DNA from: Podospora anserina
Taxonomy: Eukaryota
Direction: 5' to 3'
Assembly: GCA_017654855.1 (NCBI GenBank)
Contig: JAFMPO010000001.1
Location: forward strand, 186,001-250,000
DNA length: 64,000 nucleotides
The notes under the pieces were generated by a model that saw only the letters and a list, made by a program, of their open reading frames with translations, did not search any database and was not told where the DNA came from. This document shows positions 5,755-49,329 of this stretch, piece by piece; the stretch's first letter is position 1, and each line of letters starts with the position of its first letter. Both the position numbers and the translations under genes were made by a program.

Positions 5755-6163
5755 TGTGAGTCTAGTTTGGACCCTGAGCTTTGCTTAACCCGGGCACGAC
5801 CTCCATTTAAAATAGTAAGAAAACACACAAACCAACCACAACACCACAAATATAACCTCAATAGGTTTTTCTGAATGAATCTACCTGCGTGACAGTGACT
5901 CGCTCGCAGGCCGCACTTCACGTAGGACAAAGAAAAGACACTATGGGCTCGCAGGCCACATAATAAATACCGGATTGGCCTGATCAGAGGGCCAGAATTG
6001 CCTGCACGCGTGCAAGGCACAAAATACGAAGAAATAAAAGTCGATGTCCTGTCTAAAATAGAATGCCCGAAGCAGACCGCTTATATACATGACCCCTGAA
6101 CCCCCGAATCCTCCGAGAGCCCCACCTCCTTACTCAAACCCTCAGGCCTGTGACCGCACCCTA
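5755..6163 (-). mobile_element. 5' LTR of the minus-strand Gypsy element, U3 end truncated
   Basis: GC-rich island starting TGTGAG (CTCACA end on the minus strand), with a minus-strand TATA near 6080-6088. It abuts the remnant LTR end of the next element. Confidence 0.65.
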
Positions 6164-8479: not shown

Positions 8480-9102
8480 TGTTAGCTGGTAAGCCCTGAT
8501 AAGCCTATAATATAGAACCTATACAGGGTTGCTGTAAAAATACAGCAGTGCGCAAGCGGAAGCGGGAGGATACGACGGCAGTGCCGAAGGAAGGTAAAGC
8601 ACTGTAATACAGTGAGGTATAAAGAATAAGAATTGCTTTTATTACCTTTGGCCTTAGCCTTAAGCTTTTTGCCCTTAAGGAAAGAAAGAAAGGAACTATT
8701 CTACAGGAAAGAGGAGAGGTCTATATATAGGCCTTCGTAGGCCTACTGTGGGTCCTGTAGGCCCTGGAAGCCCCTATACCACTTTAGGTATTTAGTGGGC
8801 TTAAGTGGGTCTAGTATAGACTTATAGAAATCTATAGAACCTTCAGTAGCAAAGGTGCCCTGTAAATCACACCATTGTGGCAACTTACTACGTAAGCCTA
8901 TAGCCACTTTGGAAGGTTCTAGTATCCATTGACTAAGCCTCAGGCCACAGTAGCCCTGTAAGCCTTCAAGGGTCCCTTGTAAAGAATATTCTAAAGGGAT
9001 CCAAGCCGGGAAGTTCCATTACTGCTTATAGCAGTACTGCCCACTGTAATATCAATCTATAGGGCAGTAAGTAGGGCACTTAGTAGTACCCACACATTAA
9101 TA
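8480..9102. mobile_element. Solo LTR (623 bp) of a different family, inserted in the RT of the chromoviral element
   Basis: GC-richer island with termini TGTTAG and TTAATA (RIPed CA end). TSD ACTTT at 8475-8479 and 9103-9107. The RT motif order resumes after the insertion. Confidence 0.85.
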
Positions 9103-12100
9103 ACTTTATATATTTAAATATGCTTATTAGATATGTTTATATATAGATTAAAGAAAAAAATAAATAAAAAATAATATTTTATATACCTTATAATTATTTT
9201 AAATATTTCGTAATATTATTTAAACTAATTAATATACCCGTAACGTTTTAATCTTTTATTAATTATACGATCCGGAAATACTTTAATAAAGTAATAATAT
9301 ACTATTTTAATTATATTTTTATTTATTTATATACTTTAGAAAAGTATAAGCGATACGTATAAGAGATATTTAACGCGCTATACGGAGCCGGACTTTTAAT
9401 TAATAAAGAGAAAAGTAAGTTCTATATATAAAAAATAATATATTTAGGATATTTAATATCGTTAAATAAAGTTTATATAAAACTTAAAAAAATTATAGTA
9501 ATTAAAGATTAATTTATATTATAATTATAAATATATATTAAGGAATTTTTAAAGTTTACAAATTTTTATTAAATATTTATTTAAAGGTATATAAATATTA
9601 TATAGCTATTTAATTATTTAATTAAAAAGGATATAAAATTCCAATAAAAGTAAAAAGAAAAGTAAACTTTTTAAAAATTAAAGGAAATTATTTTAAAGGA
9701 TGTAATATTTAAATTATTAAACCCTAATCGATTATTTAAAATCGAAATAAATATATTAAACTATACAATCGGTAAATAATTAGGGTAGCGAAACGATAAT
9801 AGTAAATTATATTTAATAATTTCTTTTTCGAAAAAGCTCGAAGGGTTATATTAAAATTATTTAATTTACGATAAAAAGTTATTTACTATTATCGAAACGT
9901 TTAAAGAATAAAAGTTATATTTTAATAGTACTAAATATAAAATATAAATTTATACGAATTATAAAAATCTATAATACTTTATTATTATAAAAGTTTTTAA
10001 CGTACGGTAAATATAATAATTAAAAAATTTTTCGGAATTTAATTTTTAAATAAATTATAAGAAAGGTTTGAAAAATATTAAAATAAATATATTTAACCGG
10101 TAAATAAACTACTATAAGAATATATTTAAGGAGTTACTATTATTATTTAAAGAAACGTTAAACGGTACTTTTAAGTATTTACTATAATTATAAATAAAGT
10201 ATTATATAGTATATCGTAAAAAAATTATTTTTAATAAATATTAAAGAAAGTTAAATAATAATATTATAGAATAATATTAATAGGAAAAACTAAAACTATA
10301 AAGTATTTAAAAGGATAGTTAAAGAAAATTATAGTATAAAAATCGAGTATATATAATACTAAGTAATAAAATAATATTAGTAATAAAGATTTATAAATCG
10401 AAGTTCGAAAAATATATAAATATTATAAAAACTATAGAAAAAATTAAGTAATATTTTATTTAATTAAAGATTAAAAACAACGTTAAAAGAATTATTTAAT
10501 TATATTATATATATAAAGAAATAAGGGTTACGAAATATAAACTTTATAGATCTCTAAAACTATTATTAATAGTAAACGATTATAAAGTTTAATTATAATA
10601 AATTTTATTATTAAATTATTAAAATTTAAAAATATAATAATCGGTATTAAATATAATAATATATTAATAATAATCGATAGGTTTATTAAATAAATATATT
10701 TTTTATTTTATAAAGAAATTTAATTAATAAAGTAATTAACGAATATAATATTATAGTATATTATATTAATATATATATAATTAAAAAAGTTTATTACGGA
10801 TTATAATATTAAATTTATATTAAAGTTTTAAAGAACGTTAATAACGAAACTAAGGGTAATAAATAAAATATTTTCGGCCTACTACTCTTAAATAAACGGT
10901 TAAATAAAATAATTTAATTAAATTATAAAATAATATTTATAGAATTATATTAATTTTAAGTAAAACGATTAAATTAAAATTATAATTTATAATATAATTA
11001 ATATATAATATATTATTAATTAAAACGATTAAAACTATATTATTTTTCGTAAATTTTAAATATAAAGCAGACCTACGGTAAAAATTAAATATAAAAGTAT
11101 TTAGGGCTAAAGTTAAAGTAAATAAATTATATATATTTTATAATAAATTTAAATAAAAGTTAAAGTTTATAAGGGAAAGAATATAAAAATACTATAATAT
11201 TAAAAAACTCGAAGGACTTTACTTTAAAGGGAGGAATATAGTATTTCTTTCTATATATAATTTATATATTAAAAAACTTAATAAAAAGCTAGACTATAGG
11301 AAAGTAAGCCCGTTTAAGGTTAAAAGAAAGATTTTAAAAACGGTATTTAAATTAAAATTATTTAATATAATATATTTATAATTATATACCTTTTATATTT
11401 TACTTTTAAAACCCGTATTACACGTAAGTAAAATTAATATATAGGCCGTAACGGAAGATAAAAAAAAGTATAATATAAAGGAAATATTAAATTTATAATT
11501 TAATAAAAGTTAATTAAAGTATTTAATTAATTAATTAAAATATTTAATTATAAATAATTTATTGGAATTAAAAATAAATTTTAATTACCTAAATAAATAA
11601 AAGGAATTTCATTAACGATATTTAAACCGACCAAAATCTAAATAAAAAAGACGAGTCTTTAAATTACTACTAAATAGTAATAATATAGAGATTAGAGAAT
11701 TTTAATAAAAGTCGAACTTACGCTTTCAATATAATAATCGACGTACTATATATTATACTATAAAGTTAAAAAGGGTAAAGGGGATTAAATATAAATAATA
11801 TTATATACTTTAATTACTTTAAAAAATAAAAAGTATATTAGCGGCGGTATTTTAGGAGGTTAAAAAGGAAGGACTAACTATACTAGGGTCTAGGGAAAGG
11901 TTAGGTAACTAATTAAAGCTTAAAAAAGGATTTAGAAAAGAAAAGTTAGTACTAAAAATAGTAATAGTAGGAGGGTCGAACGTAAATATTACTTCGTTAA
12001 TAATAATAATACCCCGCTTTAATAAATATTATTTTTATTAATAAAGATAAAATAAATATATAACGGTTTCTTACGCTTTACGCGTAATCTCTTCGGCTTT

Positions 12101-12571
12101 ACGGTAAACGTTTAAGAATCGTTTTTCGGCGGTTAGCTTTTTTAAAAATAAATGGCGATATTCGGTAATTAAGTATTTAATTAAATAAAGTTAAATAAAG
12201 TATTAAGAAAGGAACGGATTAATCGATTTATAATAATAAAAATACTTAACGCGTCGTATAAACGGCTTTAACGTATATATTTACTATAACGGAAAAAATA
12301 TTTATAAAAATAATAAATTAAATTATAAGTAATATAAAAAAAATAAAGTATAACAATAAAACTTTTAAGGTTAATAAAGACGGCTAAAATTAAATAATAA
12401 TAATATTACGGATTAACGTTTAGAGTAAAGGATTACGAGGATTTAAAAACTCTATAAAGGTTAGATATTATAGTAATAAGGAGAAGAGAAGGATTTATAA
12501 ATAAAGAAAAGTAAGTAATAAACGATTATTTTAAACTTTAAATCAACGGAATTTCGATTTAAGAGGAGGGG

Positions 12572-12996
12572 TATTATATTATAATTAAATTAAATAGGTA
12601 GGACGGACCGTATATAGGGTATAAAACGTATAGCTAATCGCTAATAGGATTAATTAGGATAAAGATACGCGATTATAAATAATAAATTAGGAAAATATAG
12701 TGATTGCGGTAATATAATTAATAAGGAGCTACGGAGGATTATAGTAATTATTATAATTATTAAGAACGAGCGGAATAATTATTATAATCAGGGCTTAGCA
12801 CGAGGTCTATATATACGGAAGAACTAGCTAGTGTAGATAGATAGTTTTATAGTATATAATTTAAACTTATATTTACGGTATTTAGTATTTATATTAAAAT
12901 ATCTTATCGTGCACTATTTAGCTGCACCGAACTAATTGTCAGAAGTTACTTTTAACTAGTATCCCTTTCAGAGGTTCTATATAGGGGTTCGTCACA
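12572..12996 (+). mobile_element. 3' LTR of the chromoviral element (partly RIPed)
   Basis: Follows the PPT. It contains the AGGTCTATATATACGG...GGTTCGTCACA block shared with the solo LTRs at 13.5-15.2 kb. The start is uncertain by about 5 bp. Confidence 0.8.
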
Positions 12997-13310
12997 GAGA
13001 GGTAGATAGTTAAGGCAAGCTACGATAAGCCTAACCAATTTGATTAAATAGTAAGCTAAAGAGGGAATAAAGGAAAGCAAATAAAGTCTGGCTATAAGTA
13101 GGGCTCTAAATATAGCTAAACTTAAACCTATAAAAGCACCCACGTGACTTTCACGTGGCTTGCACTGCAAACCTATATGTTATAAGCTAGGGCCGCAATA
13201 GGTATATAAATATTAAATGGAACTATAATAAAGATAAATAGTACGTTAGTTTATATAACGATTTAACTAGGTCTTTCCGTTAATTTATAATTTAGTTTTT
13301 AAATTTACTT

Positions 13311-13460
13311 TAGTTAATTTAAACCTTTTAAAATTAAATATATATTTTCTAAATTAAAATTAATGGGGGGGTAGGGAGTAGAAAGTAATACTGCTTTTAA
13401 CTAAATATCCCACCCAAATCCAAAAGCGGCAATATATTTCCCTTAACCGGGAAGAATAAC
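13311..13460 (+). repeat. Unclassified 150-bp dispersed repeat, RIPed copy
   Basis: Colinear with 31241-31390; the differences are mostly C>T and G>A. Confidence 0.85.
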
Positions 13461-13499
13461 GAGTAAAACGAAGTATAATAGGAAAATATAGCTATTAAT

Positions 13500-14269
13500 T
13501 GTCACGGACCTGACATAAGTGGGGAGCGCGGGGCGCGACCGTCCAACCACTGGAACGGAAAAGTGGGGAAGTCGGATTATCACTAGTGCCAAGGGTGATA
13601 ATCACGATTATCACCAGCCTTCGATGAACGACGAGTGATAATCGACATGTTACGGTTCTGGAAGACAGTGGGGCCACGACGGACCAATCAGGACTGGACC
13701 GCGCAATCGAGCGGGGCTCACGGTCCAGGTGGGCAAACGGACCAATCAGATGGGGACCGGGGACCGCGGCGGAGCTCACGGTCCACGGTCCAGTATCGGC
13801 CAATCAGGAGAGGACCGAGGACCGTCTGTAAGTCAACGGTCCACGGTCCCAAGGTCTATATATACGGAGGAACTGGCCGGTGTAGATAGACAGTTCCGCA
13901 GTATGCAATTCAGCTTGTATTCACGGTATCTAGTGTTTACATTGAGACATCTTGTTGTGCACTGTTTAGCTGCACCGAACCAATTGTCAGAAGTTACCTT
14001 CCACCAGTATCCCTTTCAGAGGTTCTGTACAGGGGTTCGTCACACGACATTATCACTGGTGATAATGGTGATAAACCGGTCTATATATACGGAGGAACTG
14101 GCTGGTGTAGATAGACAGTTCCGCAGTATGCAATTCAGCTTGTATTCACGGTATCTAGTGTTTACATTGAGACATCTTGTTGTGCACTGTTTAGCTGCAC
14201 CGAACCAATTGTCAGAAGTTACCTTTAACCAGTATCCCTTTCAGAGGTTCTGTACAGGGGTTCGTCACA
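13500..14269 (+). mobile_element. Intact solo LTR (outer), split by a nested LTR
   Basis: TGTCAC...GTCACA termini. TSD TTAAT at 13495-13499 and 14270-14274. Not RIPed. Confidence 0.92.
13648..14044 (+). mobile_element. Intact solo LTR (inner, 397 bp) nested in the outer LTR
   Basis: TGTTAC...GTCACA termini. TSD CGACA at 13643-13647 and 14045-14049. Its 3' 192 bp is nearly identical to 14078-14269. Confidence 0.92.
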
Positions 14270-20700: not shown

Positions 20701-21839
20701 TTCCACCATATTCTGGACCTGTGGTAGTGGATGAAGGGCAAATGTCAACCATACAAAACAACAATAATGATGCTTGGGTGCTTATACATAAATAAGCTTT
20801 GGTGTCAGGACAACAGAGGCTGGGCAGCGGCGGCGGGCAGCCAGTGGTGATTGGCGAAGACCAGTAGGATTTTGGAACTAGAATAATCCAGAGATTGAGA
20901 TTTTGGTAGAACAGAGCGCTGAGCGTCACAATAAGTTTCATAATCCACGATCATAGTAACGAAGAAAGCGGAAGCGCTTTCCTACCAACCCCTGGATGAC
21001 TAAACCACCTACCTTAGTCCCAGGATAAACACAAGGCGGTTCCGTCAACCAGCCCCATCTGCACGGGCGTTGGGGTTTTCATAGGATCTTCCCTCACCGT
21101 GTACTGTTTTTCACAGCTATATATGCCTGTTATCCCAGTAATTTACATCGCTTATCCCAGATACATCTGTTTTTTGTCCCAGTTGCCACAAAGTAGGCAC
21201 ATCGGGGTAGTGGTTAGCACCGATGTCCGTCGACCTAACCGAGATAGGGTAATGCTCAAAACTCTTCTGTTGGAAACTTGCATGGAAGGCTAGTAGGGGT
21301 GTCAGAGCCCACATAAATCCCGACCCCTGTAGTCTCTCTCACAATCCCGCACCCGAGACATCACACTCCACCACACTCCCATGCATCTTTGGATGGGTAT
21401 CTGAGGAACGCTGCAGTAGCGAGCTGTTCGCTTGCCAAAACGACTATCTGCAGCCGTTAGTGTAGGCTGCCGTATTCTCACCAAAAAAACTCGAAACAGC
21501 TCTGGGCTGTCCAATCAACTGGCAGTTTTACGTCTGGTACTGCATCGGTGGCGTGTATCATTGGGCAAACCGAGCCAATGCTGTGGGTTGCTTGTACCGC
21601 AGCGTAAGGCGTTGACAGAAATATTGAGAAGAACATTACATAAATGGGTGACATTGAAGTGGCGGCAGGATCAATAAGCCTGTCAGGCAGGGTCTTGGGA
21701 CGGGAGAACTCTTCAGGGATATCCGGAGGTGATAGGAGATATCAAGAGATAAATAGGTTCACAAGCGTCAACTTTCGAGGCTTTCTCTCCCATCATTCTT
21801 CGTCTTCATCAGCATCTTCTGCTCTGATACTCATCCAAG

Positions 21840-23007
21840 ATGGTTGGCGGCATCAAGAGCCTCATCATTTGTGCCTCTGCTGCTTTGGCCGCATGCACAC
21901 CCACTCCTCCCACGCCCATCGTCCGCAAGGAATGGTAACTCTCACCCAAAATGTTTCTCTTTTCTTTTTGTTCTCACTAACATTCCCAAAGGCGTACTCT
22001 CACCACTTCCGAGAAGGCAGAGTACATCAATGCCGTCAAATGCATACTCGCCAAACCAGCCCTCACCCCAGAAGGTTCACCCCCAACCGGTCACGGTGTC
22101 ATCAGCCGCTACGATAACCTAGTCTACACCCACATCCAGCAAACCCTGGAGGTCCACTACGTCGGCCACTTCCTCGCCTGGCACAGACTCTTCACAGCCA
22201 CATACGAGAAGATGCTCCGCAACGAGTGCGGCTACACCGGCGCCCAACCATACTGGGACTGGACCCTCGACGCAGCCGACATCACCGACTCGCCCGTCTT
22301 CGACCCCATGACAGGGTTCGGGGGCAACGGCCCATGGGTTCCTAGTGACCCCACCTCATGGATGCCACCTGTCCCAGGGCGCACCGGAGGAGGCTGTGTG
22401 GTGGATGGTCCCTTTGCGGGGATCAACGACCTGGTCCACTTGGGCCCTGGGAGCTCTCTAGTGTATAACCCGCAGTGCTTGAAGAGAGATCTTGCTCCTT
22501 CGTTTGCGTCGATGTACCTGGGGATGAACCAGACACAGCTCACACTGAGCCAGCCCGACTTTGGGTGGTTCAACGCCGTTGTTGAAGGGTCCCCCAGCTT
22601 TGATGCTTCAGGTGTGCACGGTGGTGGGCATTTCGGCGTTGGTGGAACGTTTGGTTAGTACTCTCTCTTACATGGTGCACTTGTCGTTCATTGTCCTAAC
22701 AAAACCTCCAGGTCAAATGGGTGACTTGAACACCTCGCCAGCTGATCCACTTTTCCACCTGCATCACGCAAATCTGGACAGACTGTGGTGGTCGTGGCAG
22801 AGCTTGAACCTGCCGGCAAGACTGAGTGATATCTCGGGGCCGTCTATCATGATGAACCCCGCCTCCCCCAACGTTACCTTGGCTCATCCGTTGTCAGTGG
22901 GTGTCAGCGGAGTTGATACCACCGTTGGGGACGTCATGAAGATCGATGCTTGTGGCACGGGCGGCAGCATGTGCTACACATACGACTCTCTTTACACCCT
23001 GCTATGA
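21840..23007 (+). CDS. Secreted tyrosinase / type-3 copper oxidase, two introns
   Basis: Signal peptide, then VRKEW, CuA H...HFLAWHR, PYWDW and CuB GVHGGGH...SPADPLFHLHHANLDRLW. Confidence 0.92.
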
Positions 23008-34715: not shown

Positions 34716-35735
34716 CTACTTCAGCTCTTGTCTCTTGTACAATCCCAAAGACTCAACCATCGGTCTGTCATTAACAGCAAAGAGATACGCACTCCCGCAC
34801 TCTTGCGTGCAAGTATGAGAGATTGTGCTCCACGCCGGAACAGCAAAAGTGTCCTTGCCCTTCCACTGAACCTTCTCCTCCTTTCCCTCCGGCGAGACAA
34901 TAGTCGAGTACCCCTCTCCTTCATACACATGATACACAAATGACACCGTCTCCCTCACCTTCTTGGTGGTGGCCCCGGCGTTGATTCTCTCCGCCTGGCC
35001 AGAAATAGTCTTGGACAGGTGCTTCCCATGCTCCCCGGACTTGTAGTCATACCGCGCATAAGTTTCAGTCTCCTTATTCTCATCCAACACAGCTTGTACC
35101 GGAGCCCAGGGGAGCTTCCAGTTGCTGTTGTCGGACAGCTCACTGGGATATCTAGCCTCCTCGTAGTTCTCGGCAAAGTTCACAGGGAGGAAGCGGTACA
35201 CGGGCAAGTCCAGCCCGTCCAACCACACCATCGGCCCATCACCTTCACTGCCGTGGTCATGCCAGTGCCAAGACGGGGTGAGAATGACATCTCCACGCTC
35301 CATCATCAGCTTCTGCCCCTCCACCGCGGTAAAACCGCGAGATCCCTCGACGATGAACCTCAGGGCAAAGGCCACGTGCCTGTGAGCAGGGGCGGTTTCT
35401 CCTGGCAGGATGAGCTGAAGACCGGCGTAGATGGTGTCGGTGGTGTAGGGTGCCTGCATGGCAGGGTTTACCAGCATGAGCACACGACGCTCTGCCTCCT
35501 CTGCTGAAACGACAATCCCGCTTTGCATGAGCACGGGTCGGAGGTCTTCGTAGGGCCAGGCGGTGACCACCGAGCTGGGGTTTGGCTTCGGTGGAACCAT
35601 CTTGTTGAGGACGGTCCAGAGGGGCTCGACATTCTTGGAGGCGATGTCGGTGTAGAACTGGGCTTCTGTTGAGAGTGTTGAGGGGGTTGAGAGGGTTGAG
35701 CTCTTGGCTCCGGAAACATTGGCGCGGTTTGCCAT
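34716..35735 (-). CDS. Gentisate 1,2-dioxygenase-type bicupin ring-cleavage dioxygenase
   Basis: AERRVL.L.NP, TIYAGLQLILPGETAPAHRH, GDVILTPSWHWHDH and WLDGLD motifs. Confidence 0.92.
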   Translation of the reverse strand: MANRANVSGAKSSTLSTPSTLSTEAQFYTDIASKNVEPLWTVLNKMVPPKPNPSSVVTAWPYEDLRPVLMQSGIVVSAEEAERRVLMLVNPAMQAPYTTDTIYAGLQLILPGETAPAHRHVAFALRFIVEGSRGFTAVEGQKLMMERGDVILTPSWHWHDHGSEGDGPMVWLDGLDLPVYRFLPVNFAENYEEARYPSELSDNSNWKLPWAPVQAVLDENKETETYARYDYKSGEHGKHLSKTISGQAERINAGATTKKVRETVSFVYHVYEGEGYSTIVSPEGKEEKVQWKGKDTFAVPAWSTISHTCTQECGSAYLFAVNDRPMVESLGLYKRQELK

Positions 35736-36078
35736 TGTAAATTGGGTCTTGTTTGGTTGTGTCTCGAGTTGGTGATGATGGTGGGTTGTCGTCGTGAATG
35801 GATATCGCTTCAACATATATTGATCATGGCCTCGCACTATTCTCCTCATATGATCGGCTCCGCTATTGGTCCCATGACCGGAAGTTGTTTGCCGTGTGTA
35901 GATGGGAGATGGGGTTGGAAGCCGCCCAAAATCCGCACACTGTTAACCCGAACCTGGAATGAGGGTCATGTCCACCAAGACACAGAAGAGAAGTAAAGTT
36001 CGTTTTGTTTCTCGAATTCGACGCCGTTTTATTGTTGATGCCATTCATCATTTTGAGTTGCCACTGTTGTTGGTAACA

Positions 36079-36618
36079 ATGGCTGAAGTTGTGAAAGGAT
36101 CTTGCCTCTGTGAAGGCGTCAAATTCACCGTCCAGGGAACCCCTGACGCCATCTTTATCTGCTACTGCTCACACTGCAAGAAGAATGCCGGTGCTCCAGG
36201 TCAAATCGCAAGTTTGAAACCCCCCAGTGACTTCCAAGATCTCATACTAACGATCTCTCAGTCAGCCAAGTTCAAGTGCGAAAATGTGCACGTCTTGGAA
36301 GGAAGCGAGCATATCAATACATGGATTCTGAAAGACAACCTCAGTGGCTGTGAGAAACACAAGAAGTTCTGTTCTCGGTGCGGTTGCACATTGTGGACAA
36401 TTCCTATGAAGCATTCCGGTAGCCATTGGATCGTTCGGACAGCTCTGCTGGAGAATGGGTAAGTAATATCCCGCTGCTATGGCAAGAAGGGTTCAGCTGA
36501 CAGTACTGCTCTCTCCAGGTTCGACAAGTTCCCGTACAAGGCCGAGTTCTTCGCCTCCAGAAAGATGCCAGTTGCGGCAGCTGTGGTCAAGTCGTTCGAC
36601 ACAATGCCAGGTGCTTAA
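36079..36618 (+). CDS. GFA/Mss4-like (CENP-V) zinc protein
   Basis: GSCLC..V, CYCSHCKK and FCSRCG motifs. Introns at 36208-36261 (GC-AG) and about 36459-36518. Confidence 0.88.
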
Positions 36619-36959: not shown

Positions 36960-37969
36960 CTACTCAAAGACCATCTTGTTTTTGACACTGCCCAACTCCT
37001 CAATCTTGACCTCAATAACATCGCCATTCTTGAGCCACTTTGGCTCCTTCATACCCATGGCAACACCCGCAGGTGTGCCCGTCATGATGATGGTGCCAGC
37101 CTCGAGAGTGGTACCCTGGCTGATGAAAGCAACAATCTCCTCAGTGCTGAAAAGGAGATCGTTGGTGTTGGTGTCTTGTCGTACCTCGCCGTTGACAATG
37201 GTCTGAAGCTGGAGGTTGCCGGCGTTGCCAACAATCTTGGGGGAGACAAGCAGAGGGCCGACGGGGGCGAACTTGTCGAAGCCCTTGCTGAAGCACCACT
37301 GTGGGACACCGCCGGCGAAGGCGGGGTCACGCTGCCATTTTCTAGCAGAAACATCGTTGGCAACGACGAAACCAGCAATGTGCTCAAGAGCCTTCTCCTT
37401 GGGGATGTTCTTGCCAGTCTTGCCGATGACGATGGTCAGCTCACCCTCGTAGTCGAGCTGGTCATCTTGGGCAAGTTTTGGGATGGGGATATCCTCCTTG
37501 TAGCCTGCGATGGAAGCGCGTGGCTTGATGAAAATGGAAGGGTATGGAGGAGGCTTGCGGCCACCTTCCTGAACTGTTGAAAATTTCCTGTTAGCAGCAT
37601 AATCTCTGAAATATCCCGTGCGACCTTACTGTGCTTGATGTAGTTGAGTCCGACGCACTTCACAATTGGCACATCCTCAACAGTCAACAGGGGAAGAACT
37701 TCCTGCACCTTGACCACCTCAGATGTTGGTGTGACGTTGAAGGGGCTGCTGCCCTCGAAAACGGTGGCCTCCAGAGTGCCCTTTGCTACAGCCTCATCGA
37801 ACTCGGACACTGATGAGATCTTGGGCTCGCCAAAGCGAGAGTTGCCTGCAGCATCGCGGAAGCGAATGAGACGGCCAAACGACGACATGGTACGTGTGGA
37901 GAATGATGACGAAAACTGTCTGGACAACGATGAGATGGCAATGAATGAGCGACGCAATATTGATGACAT
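36960..37969 (-). CDS. Fumarylacetoacetate-hydrolase family protein (fumarylpyruvate hydrolase-like) with possible mitochondrial presequence
   Basis: CVGLNY..H, FIKP, DYEGEL, GNDVS.R.WQ, KGFD...P.GP and GTPAGV motifs, with one intron. In-frame ATGs at 37969 and 37888. Confidence 0.9.
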
Positions 37970-38762
37970 GTCTTGGATGATGACTTTTGTTGTCATTGTT
38001 TGTTGATTTGAGTTGCCCCTTTTCCGATAACACATCCCCCTCCCGCCTTAATTCCGCCCGCTGCCGCAAATCCACTTTCTCCCCCCGCTTGGAGGATCGG
38101 AGATCGAACACTCGGAGCTCGCACGCCATCACGGAGATTATGTTGCCCCGAAGAGGCGATACTGACGGAGCTGAGGCATGCAATGTTGGGCTGGTGACCT
38201 AGGAAAGTCACTGGCTGCGAAAATGAGGCCAAAATTGGCCAGAAAAAAAATAGTAAACAAATTGGTATTACAGTAGTTGGTTGTTGGTTAAAAAGTAAAC
38301 AGTAAGAAAATCCAGCCCCAAGAGCAAACCGGTGTGGGTCTGGGAAAACCTGGGCCCTTTGGTGCCCCACATGCAATGATGCCATTCCGGATGCGCCGGT
38401 TGTTCCATCAATAGTTGATGTGATGGTACAAAAAGGGATGTTGAGAGGGTTCGGGTTGACCCCTTTTTCACCCCTTCCCAAAGTAAACAAACATGCCGGA
38501 CAACGTACCAGCACTTTCGCAAATCGGTTGTTGCGCCTGAGAAAATATGTGTAGTCTCCGGATGGTAAATTGAGACGGATCTCGAATCAGTCCAGGTTTT
38601 TTCCAGGTTAAACGGATGTCAAGAAAGTCCAATCACTGCAGGAACTACATGTGTGGCAGCCCACAATCCAATAACGATAAAGTCGGGTATGTTGGAGCAG
38701 AATCACGTTTAACCTTGACGTCGCTACCGATTTTCTCATTTCTTATAAAAATATGAACTGCC

Positions 38763-39881
38763 TCATTCAGAAACCTTGATCAAAATCTTGCCAGTCGTCT
38801 TCCTTCCTTCCAAGTCCTGTTCATCAGGTCAAGTCAGTTTCCAACTCATTTTGTCACCTGTGAAAGAATGAACTTACAATGTGTGCCTGCTTGACATTAG
38901 AGAGGGAATACAGGCCATGAATCTTGACCTTGAGTGCGCCGGATGTGAGAAGGCTGAAGAGCTCGTTGGCATAGCCCTCGAACTCTTCACGGGTGGCAAT
39001 GTAGCCAAAAAGAGTTGGTCTGGCAATCCTGATACACTTTGGTGCAAGGCGGCTGCAACCTGATTAGTCACTGAGATCATTTTGCAGACAGGCATCAAAA
39101 CTCACTTCAAAGGCAATGGTGGGATGGGACCACTAGAGTTGCCGAACCAAACTATGGTCCCTTTCCTCTTGACAACGGCCAAACTGCCCTCCCATGTGTC
39201 CTTGCCAACAGAGTCATAGACCACATCGACGCCTCTCCCACCAGTAATGTCCATCACTGTCTTGACCCAGTCCTTGCCCTCCTCGCTCCTGTAGTCAATG
39301 ACATGGTCCGCACCGAGGCTCTTGACCAATTCAACCTTCTCTGGGCCACCAGCTGTACCAATGACCTTGGCACCGACGTGCTTGAGCAGTTGCGTCATCA
39401 AAAACCCAGCACCGCCTGCCGCCGCATGAAGCAAAACCCAGTCACCAGGCTGGACTGTGTAGGTCTCCCTGGCGAGAGCCAGCACTGTCAGACCACTCAT
39501 GAAGCTGGCAGTGGCATCTTCGTAAGACACGGTATCTGGCAGCTTGAGGGTCTTGGCTGCTGGGACCGCAGAGTACTCAGCATAACCAGCATTGGCGAGC
39601 CAAATGACTCTGTCGCCGACCTTGAGGTTGAACTCCTCCGTCTTCGGCCCGAGTGCCACAACTGTGCCGGCTGCTTCTCTGCCCAGGACCTCAGGCTTTG
39701 GTGATGGGTAGAGTCCGGTGCGGAAGTATGTGTCGATATAGTTGATGCCGGAAATCTCGTTCTTCACGAGGACCTGGCCTTCGGTTGGCTGTGGGACAGC
39801 CCAGTCGGACTTGAACTGGAGAACCTCGGGGCCACCAATCTCCTCAACCACCACGGCTCTCTGAGATGCTGGGATAGACAT
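38763..39881 (-). CDS. NADPH:quinone oxidoreductase (zeta-crystallin/Qor, zinc-independent MDR)
   Basis: GINYIDTYFRTGLY, AAAGGAG, YDSVG and FGNSSG motifs. Two 3' introns; the protein ends KTTGKILIKVSE. Confidence 0.92.
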
Positions 39882-40327
39882 TTTGTTGGTTTGTGATGTC
39901 GCTAAACAAGTGGAGCGAGATGGAAAATTTCAAGTGAGATTCGGTTGAAGATCTGAAGTGAAGACACAAAATCCAGTCAGAGTATTCGAAAGGAGCATGA
40001 CCACAGCGAGCACGTCGAATTGTTTCCACCAGATTTCATCCCTCCCCGGACAGATAGCCGCATGCAGCGTCCACTTTCCCGAGTGGAGTTGCACGGATCT
40101 GGGGCGGAGGTAGAGCGGAAGCGGTCCATTTGCGGGTCCGCACATGTCCGACTTCGCCGGGACTTTGCGATAACATGATGCCGTCTTCCACTGTGGAAAC
40201 ACGATAAGGTAAACAGCACATGTGTAACTTTGTGCATCCACCCTTTTGCTCGACGTACGACTGCCAGTTTTGCAAACACCATCAAAAAATCATCCTACCT
40301 AGCAAATATTCTTTCCCAACCGTCACG

Positions 40328-41115
40328 ATGAGCGAATGCTGTTTGAGGGGCTTTAAGTGGGACGGCGAGCCGCAGGGCAAGGAGGTTGAGGTGAGCGGCC
40401 AGACATGCTATGTCACTGGTTCCAACCCGGATGTAGGCATCATCGTGATTCACGATCTGTATGGCTGGACCTTTGACAACACAAGGTTGCTCGCCGACAG
40501 CTATGCCGCAGAGGTTGGGGCGACCGTCTATGTCCCCGACTTGTGAGTCTACTCTCCGCAGCATCTTTGAGCTCCTGTCGCTGACAATCTCGCAGCTTTG
40601 GTGGTGTTGTTCTGTCCGCAGATCTGATCAACAACCCGGCAGAGTGGGGCAAACTTGATCTCCCAAACTTCATGGAGAGGAACAACAAGGCCGTCCGCGG
40701 ACCAGAGATGGTTTCTTTGGCAAAGCACCTCCGCACTCAGCACGGCAAGCTTGGTGCCATTGGCTATTGCTATGGCGGCTGGGCTGCTTTCCAGCTTGGT
40801 GTCAAGTCGGATGCTCCGCTCGTCGACTGCATCGCTGCGGCTCACCCAACTTTCCTGACGAAGGAGGAGATTTCCAATGTTGGCGTACCAGTGCAGATCA
40901 TCGCCCCCGAAATTGATCCTCAGTTCACCGAAGAGCTCAAGACTTACGCTGTGACTGAGATCCCCAAGTTGGGTGTGCCTTTTGACTATCAGTATTTCCC
41001 TGGCCTGAGCCACGGTTTCTCCATCAGGGGTAACCGAGAGAACCCTGCTGAGGTGAAGGGTCTCGAGAGAGCGCGGAGAGCGGCGGTGACGTGGTTCAAG
41101 GAGTGGCTCGTGTAG
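40328..41115 (+). CDS. Dienelactone hydrolase family protein
   Basis: N-terminal ECC..G, GYCYGG nucleophile elbow, EID and HGF triad residues, one intron. Confidence 0.9.
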
Positions 41116-42028
41116 GCATGAAGCAAACAGTCTTGATAGCAACAATACACCTACCCAACCATCCTTCCAACACAAGTTATCATGTCTGATACTTGAAGTA
41201 TTATGATGGAAATCCCGTTTTACCTGGTTGCCCTGAGCTTGAAAGCCGGTCTCTACGATAGAAAGTGGAATATTGCCTCAGCCCCCAGACACGGAGGTAA
41301 CATCTGTGAGAGCATTGGCAACGTCGTCAATTTGCAGCTGCTCAGCATTGATGGCTCGTGTAATGAGGCAACAAGAGCTGCTGGCCTATAAGTTACAAAT
41401 AGTTCACTGTGAGATGATTTGAACATTGTGAAGAAGAAGGTTTCTCTCTTGACGTGCTTAAAGCCCGCTCTAGAGTCTCTGAGTGATGCTGTTGACCATG
41501 CTTGAACGTTACCATGCAAAGCAACACAGCATCAGGACAATCAAGGTGTCACATAGCACCATGGACCTTGCTAACATGTCACATGGCCGTAAGCAACAAC
41601 AAGCAACAGTCCGGTGGTCTCACTCCAAGGCGGCATACCTGGTTCCGCACCATCACCGCCTGCTTTGAGCCGTGGCAAACCGTGCGGAGATAGCATACAG
41701 GGCAGATTAGAAGCTTGGCATGCATTAGCATGCGTGGTACGTACCTTATCATGACCTTCTAGAACAAGCACGATGTGGTCACTCAACTCACCGCAACAAC
41801 CCTTCCGGGAAAGGCCGGCTCCTTGTTATTCAAGGTTTCATCATGTATTCGTAGCCGATATCTTGATAGCAGAGTGCAGATCTCCCTTATCTACTGCTCA
41901 GTCCAGCGATTGCTTGCTGTTGTCTAGCCTGTGTGTTTCATGTTGATACCTACCTATCCAATCCACAGAATATCCCACAGAACATCTTACAGAATATTTG
42001 ACAAAAGTAACCACATACCACATCCACA

Positions 42029-43544
42029 ATGCCTTCAGCTATCCCACAGAACGGATCTGCCCTCCACGAGGAGCCAAAGCCGTACGCCATCTTTATGTTC
42101 CTCTCAAGTTTTTGGCCTCCAAACTCACACACCACACAGATGGGATCCAGATCACCTCCGGACTCGCTTCGTGCAGGCCCTCTCAGAGATGTACAGAACC
42201 GAAGTACCCCTCTACGGCAAGCTCGTAGATGTCGTCAACCAAGTCGATACCACCACCCTCCAGTCCCGCGGCCAAAGCCTCAACGACCTCCCCTCCCGCT
42301 TCCAGCTTGAGCGCCATGGCGCCATCAGACTGGGCACCCAGCAAGAAATGCGCATGATCAGCCGCCTCTTCGCCGTCATGGGAATGTTCCCCGTCGGCTA
42401 CTACGACCTCAAAATGGTCGGTTTTCCCCTCCACGGCACGGCTTTCCGGCCCCAGACCGAAGAATCCCTCCGAAAGAACCCCTTCCGAGTCTTCACCACC
42501 GTCCTCCGACCAGACCTCATCTCCTCCCCGGAAGTCCGGGAGATGGCCACCTCCATCCTCTCCACCAGACAGCTCTTCTCCTCCAGGCTTATCGAGCTGA
42601 TCGACCAAGCGGAGACCTCTGCTCTAGCCAACCTCACGGCCGAAGACGCCAACAACCTGATTACCGAATCTCTCAAGATCTTCAAATGGCACTCCCGATC
42701 CTCTGTTCCCCTGGAGACGTACCTCACCCTGAAAAAGGAGCACCCAATGGTGGCCGACATTGTCTGCTTTCCCTCAGCACACATCAACCACCTCACCCCG
42801 CGCACCCTGGACATCGATGCCGTCCAAGCAGGGATGATTTCCCAGGGCCTCCCAGCAAAAGACCGCATCGAGGGACCTCCCAAGAGGAAGTGCGAGATCC
42901 TCCTTCGACAAACCAGCTTCAAGGCTTTGGAAGAAAGAGTCACTTTTGCTGGTGACGCCGACCACGCCGTTGACGGGACGCACACCGCCCGGTTTGGAGA
43001 GGTGGAACAGCGCGGTGCTGCTGTGACCAGAAAAGGCAGGGAGCTCTACGATGCTTTGCTCGCCAAGGCTGTTGGTCGGAGTGAAAAGGAAGACAAGGAC
43101 TCTGACAAGGTGCTGAAGGAGGTGTTTGCCGAGTACCCTGATGACTGGGAGGTTCTTAGGAAGGAAGGGTTGGTGTATTTCCGCTATCGGGTTGCTGAGG
43201 ACAAGGCACCCGTTGCTGGCGCTCGTAAGCTGGAGGGGTCAGTGCACATGGATAGACTTCTAAAAGAGGGGGTTGTGACCTGCGAGCCGATCACATATGA
43301 GGATTTCCTGCCATTCTCGGCGGCGGGTATTTTCACTTCCAACCTTGGCGGGGAGAAGGACGGTGGCACTGAGAGGAAGCTCCAAAAGACAGAAGAGGAG
43401 AGCAAGAGGAGCCGTGTGCAGCTTGAGGGGTTGCTGGGGCGCAAGATTCCAAGTGAGATTGACCTGTATGATGAGCTGCAAACTGACAGTGTGAAGGAGT
43501 GTCAGGCTCTTCTTGGGTTGAGCGAGATCGTGCTTGGGGCTTGA
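42029..43544 (+). CDS. hglS: DUF1338 / YdcJ-HglS type 2-oxoadipate dioxygenase-decarboxylase
   Basis: ERHGAIR, HINHLTPR.LDID, LLRQTSF, HTARFGEVEQRG and YEDFLP.SAAGIF.SNL motifs. A short first exon (42029-42081) splices to WDPDHLR. Confidence 0.88.
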
Positions 43545-43649
43545 AGTATCTCGAGGGACTGTTTCGTAGGTAGTTTATTATGGTTATTACTTGTGCTGAT
43601 GTTACATTGATTGTCGTGGCATCGTTCAGAAGCCTGTCCGTGAATCGGA

Positions 43650-46603: not shown

Positions 46604-48317
46604 CTATTTCGGGCCCTTCATGAAGAGGTCCCAAGCGTCCATGACCTTGTCCAGCACCTCTTGCTTCATGAGCTTCTGCAAAATGTCTCTTCGCCCAGTC
46701 TCTCCAGGGATCTCGCCAGAGACAAACCGAGACTGGTCCTCTTCACCCTGCTCAGGAGCGTAATACACCATAGCGCCCTCTTGTGCCCCTATCTTGTACG
46801 CTGGCCAAGGAGCCTCGCCATGGATGAAAGCAATGGCGTCCTCGGTCTGCTTGTCGCCTGCCTTTTGCTGGCCAACAGGAAGAAGCTCACGGTAGTTCTG
46901 CAGGACAAACACGATGTCGAGGATGTGCGTCGCATGGCCCCTCCACGGCCCATCCCAAGGGTTCGGAACGTTGAAGTGGCAGAGGAATGCCTCGAGCCCG
47001 GCCTGCGACCAAGACCTGACGAAAGTTCTCGCTCCAAGCCCAAAGCAAATGTCGGTTGCGAGGTCGAGAACAGCCTTGAGAGACTCTTGCGAGTTGGCGG
47101 TGGCGGAGGCGTTGAGGCCGTACCCAGAGACGATTTTGGGCGCCAGCTCTCGGTCGATGGGATCCAGAGTGGCAGCCAGGAAAGTCGCCATAGTCTTTGG
47201 CATTATGTCTACTCTAGCAGCCAATCTTGGGCCGTAGGCGTTGCCATCCATCTTACAATCGCCAAACATGATTCGCTTGCACCATTGCATTCCTGGGAAC
47301 AACTCTGCTGTCCGAGCTGGGTCGGCCATCTGAGCATAGGATGTGGTTCTTGGAATCAAGTCGCCATCGACAATGGGTGCCATTGGCACTTTGCGTGCAA
47401 TCTTATCCCTGATATCCTCCATCGGGACCGTCAACAGTCGCTGAACTTGGGCCGTCTCGTCAGTTTCTGAGATGTCAAGAAGCTGCAACGCCCTCTTAAA
47501 CGACCCCTCGGCAAGTTCTGGCTGCTTGGCTTTGACCAGAGAGGAACCGCTCATCGAAATCAGCTGGTCGAACAACGGCTCCTTGGAGTGGAGATGGAAA
47601 GTGCCCGATGCCGCCCCCGAACTCTCGCCAATATAGGTTACGCGGTGCTCATCACCACCGAACCCTGCAATGTGGTGTTTGATCCAGAGCAAGCCCTGTC
47701 TCTGGTCATCGAGGCCGTTGTTTGGCTTGTAGCCTGCAGCCTTCATGGCAGAAGAGTAGAGGAAGCCAGGGACACCCAACCGGTAACTGGGGCAACGTCA
47801 ATAACCTGGGGTTTTTGATTTTGGTGGATGAATCTTACTTGACACCCACAGCAATGATTGGCTTCCCAATCTTGACACTTCTCTGGACGATACGAGCGAG
47901 ATCATACTGCGGGTAAGAACTGCTCCCCGTCGCAAAGGCACCGCCATGGACAAGGGCCAAAACTGGCCATTCAGGACCGTCTGCCTGGAGATCAGGTACA
48001 GCGATGTTGAGTGTCAGACATTCCGTGTCTGACTGCCCAAACTCTGGAGACTCCAGAGACTGCTGAATCAGTGCGTGCTCCCATTGGCAGCCGTTCGCTG
48101 GGCTCAATGGAATGGGCGCGAGGGTTGTTGCGTCAAAGATGCCGTATTGGACACGGGGGTGGTCTGATGGGTACGACTTCAAGAGCTCAGCACGTGAGAA
48201 GCGATCTTTCAAGGTCGCATACTGAACACCAAGAAACTGTGTAACACCGACTGTCTTCACCACCCCACGAATTGGCCCAATGGTTGGGTGTTGGAGAATA
48301 GGGGTCTGTTCGGACAT
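46604..48317 (-). CDS. Type-B carboxylesterase (no signal peptide)
   Basis: ECLTLNI, HGGAF, YRLGVPGF, GL.DQ..GL.W and catalytic GESSG motifs, one intron near 47790-47835. Confidence 0.9.
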
Positions 48318-48714: not shown

Positions 48715-49329
48715 ATGGCAACCACGGAGAAACTCGTCAGTCCCTCCTCCATCGGCCACTTCGGCATTAGAACAACCCCTGAAAAGTTCGAGGCCATGGT
48801 CAAGTGGCACCTCGACTTCTTCGGTGGACGCGAGGTACTTCGAAACGCCAAGGCCAGCTTCATCCAGTGGGACGAAGAGCACCACAGAATGGTCATCGTG
48901 CAAGACGACAGCCACGAGCAGATCCCAGCCGACAAGCGCCCTACAGCAGCAACAGTCTACCACATCGCTTTCACACTCAACTCTCTCGAGGATCTTGCCA
49001 CCAGCTACGAGCAGAAGAAGGCCCGCGGCATCCTGCCCCACTGGCCTGTCAACCACGGCATGAGCACCTCGATGTACTACTTTGATCCGGATGGAAATGA
49101 GTTTGAGATGCAGGTCAACAACTTCGACACAGCGGATGAAGCTCTGGAGTTCATGAAGACGCCAGAATATGCGACGAACCCGATTGGCGTGGATATTGAT
49201 ATTGAAGAGTGGCTGGCACGGGTCAAGAGCGGGGAGGATGAGAAGACCCTCAAAAAGCGTCCGGTTATTGGGCAGAGGCTTAGCCGGTATGAGAACTCGA
49301 TTTACTGGAAGAAGCCAGAAGAAGCGTGA
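48715..49329 (+). CDS. VOC/glyoxalase-fold protein resembling small single-domain extradiol (biphenyl-2,3-diol type) dioxygenases
   Basis: GHFGI, DEEHHR, YHIAF and NHG.STSMYYFDPDGNEFE motifs. Confidence 0.8.
   Translation: MATTEKLVSPSSIGHFGIRTTPEKFEAMVKWHLDFFGGREVLRNAKASFIQWDEEHHRMVIVQDDSHEQIPADKRPTAATVYHIAFTLNSLEDLATSYEQKKARGILPHWPVNHGMSTSMYYFDPDGNEFEMQVNNFDTADEALEFMKTPEYATNPIGVDIDIEEWLARVKSGEDEKTLKKRPVIGQRLSRYENSIYWKKPEEA

Follow-up and report, generated by a model that had tools for sequence, protein, structure and literature searches.

An HglS gene beside quinone oxidoreductase and dienelactone hydrolase genes in a probable ring-cleavage cluster of Podospora anserina, and a possible route to D-2-hydroxyglutarate

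Why should a gene of the HglS (DUF1338) family, whose only established role is in lysine catabolism and whose role in fungi is left explicitly open in the available text of Thompson et al. (PMC7286885), stand among genes for the cleavage of aromatic rings? The question is raised by a 64-kb stretch of Podospora anserina DNA (64,000 nucleotides (nt) of contig JAFMPO010000001.1, positions 186,001 to 250,000, hereafter the window), in which the interval 38763..43544, bounded by the stop codons of a quinone oxidoreductase gene (QOR) and of the HglS gene, comprises three genes, namely QOR, a dienelactone-hydrolase-family gene (DLH) and HglS. According to searches of Pfam, NCBIfam and the Protein Data Bank (PDB), the gene order around them is a gentisate-1,2-dioxygenase-like bicupin (GDO-like), GFA, FAH, QOR, DLH, HglS, a Zn2Cys6 transcription factor, a carboxylesterase, a VOC-fold protein and a class-A FAD monooxygenase; these ten genes, at about 34.7-51.5 kb, most likely form a catabolic cluster. 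The reading favoured here, to which slightly less than an even chance is given, is that the QOR-DLH-HglS trio would turn a ring-cleavage product into 2-oxoadipate, from which HglS would then give D-2-hydroxyglutarate.

The trio and its recurrence in fungi

The three genes, with exact or near-exact copies under the PODANS identifiers given, are as follows (aa, amino acids).

42029-42081 and 42140-43544, plus strand: HglS, a DUF1338 2-oxoadipate dioxygenase/decarboxylase homologue, 485 aa, PF07063; PODANS_1_21800
40328-40542 and 40596-41115, plus strand: DLH, dienelactone-hydrolase-family protein, 244 aa, PF01738 at E 1.3e-16; PODANS_1_21790
39881-39106, 39052-38878 and 38816-38763, minus strand: QOR, zeta-crystallin/Zta1-type NADPH quinone oxidoreductase, 334 aa, ADH_N and ADH_zinc_N; PODANS_1_21780

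The protein encoded by the HglS gene adds a new member to a known family. The open reading frame (ORF) 41928-43541 covers all of PF07063 (HGLS; profile positions 1-386 of 386, E 6.3e-152, 506.8 bits) and aligns end to end with HglS of Pseudomonas putida (6W1G, E 2.9e-119) and YdcJ of Shigella (2RJB, E 3.2e-116), and exon 2 alone passes the 550-bit cut-off of the NCBIfam HglS equivalog NF049974 with 558.7 bits. In the alignment with 6W1G the segments ERHGAIR, HINH and FGE as well as Ser403 are identical, and the motifs of the His-His-Glu Fe(II) triad of the family are kept in the Podospora protein; counted along that alignment, we take the triad to be H70, H226 and E294, with R74 lying in ERHGAIR. 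The available text of PMC7286885 names this 'HHE' triad for HglS and describes Arg74 as binding the distal carboxylate and setting the specificity for 2-oxoadipate; the equivalent arginine (R130 of the unspliced ORF) is present and is invariant across 11 aligned homologues. In the substrate loop Ser403 is kept and Val402 is replaced by Phe, but Val402 touches the substrate through its backbone amide (PMC7286885). In the same text, P. putida HglS is active on 2-oxoadipate only, one of seven 2-oxoacids, and inactive on 2-oxopimelate. The reaction of 2-oxoadipate with O2 to D-2-hydroxyglutarate and CO2 is predicted for the Podospora protein as firmly as a sequence can make it. An earlier note on this DNA had allowed for a second branch, in which salicylate would be cleaved and HglS would act on 2-oxopimelate; this branch is disfavoured, since the P. 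putida enzyme is inactive on that acid and the specificity residues are kept.

The spliced 485-aa model is based on the alignment of homologues, on the sequence itself and on a GT..AG joint (42081|42140, an intron of 58 nt) that occurs in runs X1 and X9, two of the four public runs (X1, X5, X9 and X14, only presumed to be RNA) whose contigs served as splice evidence throughout; spliced joints were likewise recovered for DLH, FAH, QOR, the transcription factor and the FAD monooxygenase. The 534-aa unspliced form annotated for P. anserina S mat+ as PODANS_1_21800, with a 49-residue N-terminal extension, was rejected, as it conflicts with the intron joint and with models of 485 aa in P. comata, P. 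pseudoanserina, P. bellae-mahoneyi, P. pseudocomata and a Logan record. The closest homologue is that of Podospora comata, with 98% identity. In Podospora pseudopauciseta (P0361/P0362) the annotation splits HglS into an ORF of 200 aa and one of 265 aa that leave out residues 201-220, so that either the gene is disrupted or the annotation is at fault; forms of 265 aa, which may be partial calls, also occur among Logan contigs.

The earlier note had further spoken of a zeta-crystallin-type reductase near HglS; it lies 2.1 kb away, and DLH, which went unmentioned there, stands between the two. QOR, the second intron of which is observed as a joint in run X5, has the ADH_N plus ADH_zinc_N architecture of the zeta-crystallin/medium-chain dehydrogenase/reductase (MDR) type and is nearest to NADPH:quinone reductases, with yeast Zta1 (3QWA, E 9.3e-66) as the best solved match, followed by Escherichia coli QOR (1QOR, E 3e-59); 2-haloacrylate reductase (1WLY), which reduces a C=C bond, is matched at E 2.7e-48. 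Against NF008024 it scores 244 bits, under the cut-off of 348 bits, with a query of 258 of its 334 residues. DLH has one intron of 53 nt (GT..AG joint 40542|40596 in runs X1 and X5), and all of 37 homologues share C130 (in GYCYGG), D179 and H211, presumably the catalytic triad, as in ClcD. A single-sequence search of the PDB with DLH gives one weak match (4ZV9, E 4e-4).

The association of these three genes recurs well beyond Podospora anserina. In protein-collection searches with HglS, DLH exon 2 and QOR exon 1, the best 120 rows of each were compared, and consecutive gene identifiers link members of the trio in four fungal genomes, one of them a basidiomycete yeast.

Cercophora sp. LCS_1: OQA88_1025, 1026 and 1027 for HglS, DLH and QOR
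Podospora fimiseda: 167487 and 167489 for HglS and QOR
Staphylotrichum tortipilum, on a contig of 12,097 bp: 38690 and 38692 for HglS and QOR
Cutaneotrichosporon cavernicola, basidiomycete yeast: 0400130 and 0400140 for DLH and HglS (identifiers from two strains, HIS002 and HIS019)

By an indirect matching of contigs, in which the length of the longest contig had to agree exactly, at least 31 of the 120 HglS homologues share a contig with DLH (14), QOR (23) or both (6) among the matches listed, and on contigs of 5-100 kb the same holds for at least 17 of 58 HglS rows with DLH or QOR, again among the matches listed. Moreover, 2 of 80 metagenome loci are fungal-like (L001 and L019, 74% and 72% identity), the other 78 being of bacterial type, and in both of these the gene directly upstream of HglS, on the same strand, is a DLH homologue (64-75% identity); the 456 and 288 bp upstream of DLH on these two contigs, which are too short to speak to QOR adjacency, gave only chance-level matches to a QOR fragment. 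Among 158 bacterial hglS loci (78 metagenomic, 80 from named genomes), DLH accompanies hglS at none and a QOR homologue at two. The absence of DLH from the bacterial loci and the recurrence of the trio in fungi therefore mark QOR-DLH-HglS as a fungal arrangement and not an inherited bacterial operon. In Coniochaeta sp. 2T2.1 (P0152/P0266), an 884,477-bp contig carries both a second DLH and a second QOR, with no HglS among the matches listed, a hint that QOR and DLH may form a pair independently of HglS.

In the main texts searched, supplementary tables lying outside the search, no paper was found that ties fungal DUF1338/HglS to aromatics or to the trio, and no mention was found of Pa_1_21750, 21780, 21790, 21800 or 21810, of PODANS_1_21800 or of ATEG_02126. 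Both the fixed association of HglS with QOR and DLH and its wiring into a ring-cleavage regulon thus appear to be undescribed. The QOR homologue of Aspergillus terreus, ATEG_02127, adjoins ATEG_02126, a 'conserved hypothetical' gene of 1466 nt and thus of HglS-gene size; the latter is listed in the available supplement of PMC7842363 with a log2 fold change of 1.68 (3.2-fold up) on salicylate at low abundance; as a tentative HglS candidate it is not taken as evidence.

A shared promoter element and the surrounding cluster

The dyad GCGG-N7-GCGG links the trio to the ring-cleavage genes. It occurs nine times in the window, at the following places.

35922..35936, minus strand: divergent promoter of GDO-like and GFA
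38043..38057, minus strand: 155 bp upstream of the FAH start codon
40104-40118 and 40121-40135, plus strand: two adjacent copies in the divergent promoter of QOR and DLH
41645..41659, minus strand: about 370 bp upstream of the HglS start codon
48505..48519, minus strand: divergent promoter of the carboxylesterase and VOC genes, 188 and 196 bp from the two start codons
51474..51488, plus strand: 311 bp upstream of the FAD monooxygenase start codon
35324 (within the GDO-like coding sequence) and 61116: outside promoters

The nine copies compare with 0.89 expected, and none of 100 dinucleotide shuffles reached nine; under a third-order Markov model of the 50-kb part with normal GC content, the mean count in 300 simulations was 1.3 and the highest was 6. 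All but one of the nine fall within 35.3-51.5 kb, and seven lie within about 400 bp upstream of cluster start codons. At the other GCGG spacings from 4 to 11 the window has 0-6 matches and the cluster 0-4, so that a spacing of 7 stands out. The motif was first spotted by eye when the stretches between DLH and HglS and between QOR and DLH were aligned for the window, L001 and L019; because these include two of the promoters later counted, an unbiased test of all 4-N(0-12)-4 dyads was run. GCGG-N7-GCGG was the single best of them, being present in six of the seven cluster promoter regions, all but that of the transcription factor itself, whereas in 200 Markov-shuffled promoter sets the best dyad reached three (129 sets), four (69) or five (2) regions and never six. 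The site at 40104-40118 is conserved upstream of DLH in L001 (253-267) and L019 (78-92), and that at 41645-41659 upstream of HglS in the same two contigs (1551-1565 and 1382-1396). The cluster is probably driven by its own Zn2Cys6 factor through these sites, and we infer that this factor binds them, as putative sites.

A second element, CCGG-N6-CCGG, is found at the HglS gene only (41805..41818, plus strand, about 210 bp upstream); it is conserved in the three aligned HglS promoters, with one copy each in L001 and L019, and the copy at 41805 is the sole one in the gene-rich part of the window.

The neighbouring genes of the cluster are as follows.

34716..35849, minus strand: GDO-like bicupin, 377 aa, Cupin_2 at E 1.2e-14
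35959..36462, plus strand: GFA/CENP-V domain protein, 167 aa, PF04828 at E 2e-16
37888-37630 and 37573-36960, minus strand: FAH-family hydrolase, PF01557 at E 2.5e-63
46187-45961, 45908-44275 and 44215-43650, minus strand: Zn2Cys6 transcription factor, 808 aa, Fungal_trans at E 3.6e-31
46604..48317, minus strand, start codon at 48317: carboxylesterase-family protein, COesterase at E 1.8e-36 and 3.3e-12 on two ORF pieces
48715..49329, plus strand: VOC-fold protein (glyoxalase/extradiol-dioxygenase superfamily), 204 aa, PF00903 at E 4.2e-8
51163-50551 and 50473-49803, minus strand: class-A FAD monooxygenase, about 427 aa, FAD_binding_3 on both ORF pieces

The setting in an aromatic cluster that the earlier note had assumed is borne out by the bicupin, FAH, monooxygenase, carboxylesterase and VOC dioxygenase-like genes found here, and so is its placing of the YdcJ-type gene beside a transcription factor: the 485-aa HglS stands tail to tail with the Zn2Cys6 factor, with 105 bp (43545-43649) between the two stop codons. 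The 3' ends of these convergent genes probably overlap, because single contigs of X1, X9 and X14, three of the four runs, span both. The factor is a spliced ORF with a CX2CX6C...C zinc-cluster motif, and both its introns are seen as joints in four runs.

GDO-like is closest to solved gentisate 1,2-dioxygenases (2D40, E 2.9e-71; 3BU7, E 4.9e-51) and is annotated as such in the sister species; its score against TIGR02272 is 276 bits, under the equivalog cut-off of 442 bits. GFA diverges from it with 109 bp between the start codons and a GCGG-N7-GCGG site in the gap, and the contigs of the four runs leave this part (about 35.3-36.5 kb) uncovered, which is uninformative on expression. As a zinc/thiol-binding protein, GFA is a candidate thiol-dependent isomerase in a cluster where a maleylpyruvate isomerase of the glutathione S-transferase (GST) type was not found; a GFA gene also neighbours hglS at one bacterial locus (L144). 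The FAH protein, the intron joint of which (37573|37630) occurs in a contig of run X1, is nearest to HpcE (1GTT, E 3.7e-42) and other members of its family, not to a proven fumarylpyruvate hydrolase. The carboxylesterase has no obvious signal peptide at its N-terminus. The FAD monooxygenase, with a joint at 50473|50551 in three runs, is nearest to the flavin monooxygenases 8AQ8, AbsH3 and TetX.

The VOC-fold protein, which diverges from the carboxylesterase gene and went unlisted in the earlier note, is a candidate for a second ring-cleavage enzyme, though not a proven one, and is at least as plausible a source of the ring-cleavage product for HglS as the cupin. A profile of 62 homologues (61 of them picked among the 150 matches listed for near-full-length coverage) finds 9U42, titled homogentisate 1,2-dioxygenase, at E 3.4e-19, catechol 2,3-dioxygenases at about 1e-11, and Fos and glyoxalase proteins too; in the 62-sequence alignment H83 and H114 are invariant, and H15, Y121/Y122 and E131 are at least 90% conserved. 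The predicted model (predicted local distance difference test (pLDDT) score 89) leads through Foldseek to VOC folds including 9U42. The protein matches an extradiol-dioxygenase signature and is the sole match to it in the six-frame translation of the window; the sister-species annotation is biphenyl-2,3-diol 1,2-dioxygenase.

A domain scan covered 77 window ORFs, consisting of 76 stop-to-stop ORFs of at least 110 aa and P0399, so that short exons may escape it. Within this set no GST domain of the maleylpyruvate isomerase type, no lysine or aminoadipate catabolic gene, and no polyketide synthase (PKS), nonribosomal peptide synthetase (NRPS), terpene synthase or prenyltransferase domain was found.

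Some further features of the window may be recorded. Positions 1-14000 are AT-rich (GC 16-34%) and resemble the regions of Sordariales repeats affected by repeat-induced point mutation (RIP), the remainder having about 50% GC and short introns. In the gap between FAH and QOR, about 190 bases (38184-38371) are covered in all four runs to a contig depth of up to about 167, far above the surroundings, with loose contig ends on both sides that run into differing sequences; this has the appearance of a repeat or of a transcript that is short and abundant, and an Rfam scan of 37900-38800 gave no family at E <= 0.01. A tyrosinase gene of at least two exons (about 21640-23004, PF00264 at E 2e-34 and 1e-12) lies 12 kb off the cluster, with no GCGG-N7-GCGG site near it.

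A possible route to 2-hydroxyglutarate and its alternatives

In the favoured lower-pathway reading, the upper enzymes (the carboxylesterase, the FAD monooxygenase and the VOC-fold and/or GDO-like dioxygenase) would open an aromatic ring, and DLH, as a cysteine-type enol-lactone hydrolase, would hydrolyse a lactonised cleavage product. QOR would then use NADPH to saturate the C=C bond of an unsaturated C6 2-oxo-diacid of the 2-hydroxymuconate/2-oxohex-3-enedioate type, yielding 2-oxoadipate, which HglS, as an Fe(II)/O2 enzyme, would convert into D-2-hydroxyglutarate and CO2; a D-2-hydroxyglutarate dehydrogenase encoded elsewhere would finally give 2-oxoglutarate. All substrates, the order of DLH and QOR, and the aromatic nature of the inducer are presumptive. 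Obvious candidates for the substrates are 2-hydroxymuconate/2-oxohex-3-enedioate and the lactone 2-pyrone-6-carboxylate, compounds that arise from pyrogallol-type cleavage. The passage from an unsaturated 2-oxo-diacid through 2-oxoadipate to oxidative decarboxylation, as the earlier note had it, fits the gene content; of the functional context drawn there, the ties of HglS to QOR, through the trio conserved in fungi, and to the ring-cleavage genes, through the motif in six of seven promoter regions, have gained support, and the 2-oxopimelate branch has not. The reading also fits a gap in the available text of PMC7842363, where the reduction of 2-oxo-3-hexenedioate to 2-oxoadipate is proposed for A. 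terreus and the onward route from there is unverified.

Several points weigh against this reading. Cleavage of the GDO type gives C7 products such as maleylpyruvate, which FAH can split without HglS, so that the source of a C6 2-oxo-diacid is not evident from the cupin; among solved structures the VOC-fold protein is nearest to 9U42, with its homogentisate dioxygenase title, and to Fos/glyoxalase proteins, and not to clear extradiol enzymes of the catechol kind; and the cluster contains no aldehyde dehydrogenase, which the classical catechol meta-route would need. QOR is highly conserved (72-91% identity among the best 120 matches) and resembles the housekeeping Zta1. Regarding gene context, the co-occurrence on contigs is indirect, contigs above about 100 kb show co-location and not adjacency, and the trio is linked to GDO, VOC and FAD monooxygenase genes only in Podospora, Triangularia and Cercophora relatives; the promoter motif, in turn, was first noticed in two of the promoters later counted. 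The flux from aromatics to the trio is a proposal drawn from sequence and gene context.

The alternative that survives best, regarded as somewhat unlikely, is that HglS clears 2-oxoadipate from the catabolism of lysine (or of tryptophan or hydroxylysine) or from alpha-aminoadipate overflow, with QOR and DLH as general detoxification enzymes and incidental neighbours, so that the source of the carbon could not be read from the cluster. The kept specificity residues of the lysine-pathway HglS and the passed NF049974 cut-off agree with it, as does the likeness of QOR to Zta1, and the available text of Thompson et al. (PMC7286885) predicts 2-oxoadipate as the substrate of every fungal homologue that has both the HHE triad and the arginine. 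Likewise, the neighbours of bacterial hglS are of the lysine-catabolism type: the 67 neighbour ORFs of 17 bacterial genome loci, taken from 27 such loci with drawn ORFs, include four LysR, three FAD oxidases resembling D-2-hydroxyglutarate dehydrogenase, two aminotransferases, two aldehyde dehydrogenases and one saccharopine dehydrogenase. However, the 77 window ORFs scanned hold no aminotransferase, no saccharopine or aminoadipate-semialdehyde dehydrogenase and no D-2-hydroxyglutarate dehydrogenase; the QOR-DLH-HglS adjacency recurs in distant fungi including a basidiomycete, and HglS has a statistically exceptional promoter dyad in common with the ring-cleavage genes.

A quite unlikely alternative is a pathway from a phenol through a quinone to a hydroquinone, which we liken to the bacterial Pnp/Pcp type. 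The FAD monooxygenase would form a benzoquinone, QOR would reduce it to the hydroquinone, and the VOC-fold or GDO-like enzyme would cleave the para-diol; DLH would open the dienelactone of a substituted product and FAH would split an acylpyruvate or acylacetoacetate, with HglS in an accessory role, its substrate being a side product or some 2-oxoacid that is not 2-oxoadipate. Quinone reduction is what the family name and the best matches of QOR imply, the closest solved relative of the VOC-fold protein by profile is 9U42 with its homogentisate dioxygenase title, GDO-like and FAH suit para-diol cleavage, and the Cys-His-Asp set of DLH is intact; in the 5-nitrosalicylate pathway, too, a lactone hydrolase follows cleavage of the GDO type. 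Nevertheless, such a pathway leaves the most conserved link, that of HglS with QOR and DLH, unexplained, its products would be of the 3-oxoadipate type or acylpyruvates and not 2-oxoadipate, and the substrate pocket residues of HglS are unchanged. Finally, a cluster for the tailoring of a secondary metabolite or for self-protection is very improbable: in fungi a Zn2Cys6 factor clustered with an FAD monooxygenase, an esterase and a reductase often belongs to a biosynthetic locus, and a tyrosinase gene lies 12 kb away, but the scan found none of the PKS, NRPS, terpene synthase or prenyltransferase domains in the 77 ORFs, and ring-cleavage and hydrolase families dominate the gene content.

A wider and unlikely form of the lower-pathway reading would make QOR-DLH-HglS the missing eukaryotic lower pathway, leading from 2-oxohex-3-enedioate (derived from 2-hydroxymuconate or 2-aminomuconate) and its pyrone lactone through 2-oxoadipate to D-2-hydroxyglutarate, with QOR as the long-sought oxalocrotonate/aminomuconate reductase, HglS serving aromatic or tryptophan carbon and not lysine carbon, and the whole unit moved between phyla. 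If the lower-pathway reading were true, a CoA-free path would lead from aromatics to 2-oxoglutarate via D-2-hydroxyglutarate, with relevance to the funnelling of lignin monomers, and zeta-crystallin-type reductases would be assigned a physiological substrate. It would touch on two questions about fungal aromatic catabolism in the available text of PMC7842363, namely the role of 'gentisate-like' clusters and the genes for 2-hydroxymuconate and 2-oxoadipate. A conserved trio with a common promoter element in the tractable Podospora offers named genes together with candidates for the regulator and for its binding site.

Origin of the trio and comparison with known systems

The possibility of a bacterial origin, also raised in the earlier note together with a DUF1338 phylogeny, was addressed with a tree of 67 HglS rows (the window, 26 named fungal, 13 others and 27 bacterial) from a quick IQ-TREE run with SH-aLRT support; among the bacterial rows, L117, whose ORF was wrongly extracted and whose branch length is 10, was disregarded. 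The remaining 26 bacterial rows are split from all fungal and the 13 other rows by a branch of length 0.65 with 100% support, and identity to the Podospora protein is 43-52% for bacteria (49-52% for the best) and 51-98% for fungi. As the split is fully supported and bacterial identity reaches 49-52% at best, nothing points to a recent bacterial donor; the tree, being unrooted, does not give the direction of any old transfer. Within the fungi the tree departs from taxonomy, in that Cutaneotrichosporon nests in the Sordariales/Coniochaeta group with 95% and 99% support. In C. cavernicola, DLH (P0131) and HglS (P0019) are 71% and 64% identical to those of Podospora and lie adjacent near the chromosome start. 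Because of this nesting of HglS among Sordariales and the 71% identity of DLH, it is likely that the DLH-HglS pair moved between fungal phyla.

Among described systems, the cluster corresponds to the 'gentisate-like' type, given that no GST-type maleylpyruvate isomerase was found; clusters of that type are described with an unclear role in the available text of Martins et al. (PMC7842363). With fungal gentisate and 'gentisate-like' clusters (PMC7842363; the C. parapsilosis GP cluster, PMC8929692, each as far as their available texts go) it shares the GDO-like bicupin, FAH, the FAD monooxygenase and an in-cluster Zn2Cys6 factor; unlike them, it adds QOR, DLH, HglS, the VOC dioxygenase-like gene, the carboxylesterase and GFA, and no transporter was seen in it. 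In C. parapsilosis, according to the available text of PMC8929692, GGA-N7-TCC stands before each gene of the gentisate cluster except that of the regulator Gtf1 itself, with support from EMSA, an electrophoretic mobility shift assay. The Podospora motif is likewise upstream of all cluster genes but the factor's own; it is, however, GCGG-N7-GCGG and not GGA-N7-TCC, the latter having 14 matches in the window against 17 expected and thus no enrichment.

Concerning the chemistry, the kynurenine/3-hydroxyanthranilate and pyrogallol lower routes are the only ring-cleavage chemistry described as reaching 2-oxoadipate in the available text of PMC7842363; they proceed from 2-aminomuconate or 2-hydroxymuconate to 2-oxo-3-hexenedioate and then to 2-oxoadipate, the reductase and the further fate of 2-oxoadipate being unassigned in fungi. 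Unlike the kynurenine route, the Podospora cluster has no 3-HAO, ACMSD or AMSDH gene. For the pyrogallol route of Blastobotrys an oxalocrotonate decarboxylase is proposed instead, and the available text of that gallate paper (PMC5605622) makes no mention of dienelactone, quinone, oxoadipate or pyrone.

As to the single proteins, QOR resembles Zta1, E. coli QOR and the 2-haloacrylate reductase CAA43 in sequence, but the Podospora-type QOR gene is fixed beside DLH and HglS in many fungi. DLH shares PF01738, the GYCYGG nucleophile elbow and the invariant Cys, Asp and His with dienelactone hydrolases of the ClcD type, from which it differs in an invariant N-terminal Cys-Cys pair and in having no chlorocatechol genes nearby. 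HglS, finally, has its family, fold, metal triad, Arg74 and Ser403 in common with P. putida HglS (PP_5260) and YdcJ of E. coli/Shigella, which the available text of PMC7286885 places in D-lysine catabolism; in contrast to these, the Podospora protein, with about 47-50% identity to them, is encoded by a eukaryotic gene with an intron, and in place of LysR, aminotransferase, saccharopine dehydrogenase and D-2-hydroxyglutarate dehydrogenase genes its neighbours are QOR, DLH and the genes of ring cleavage.

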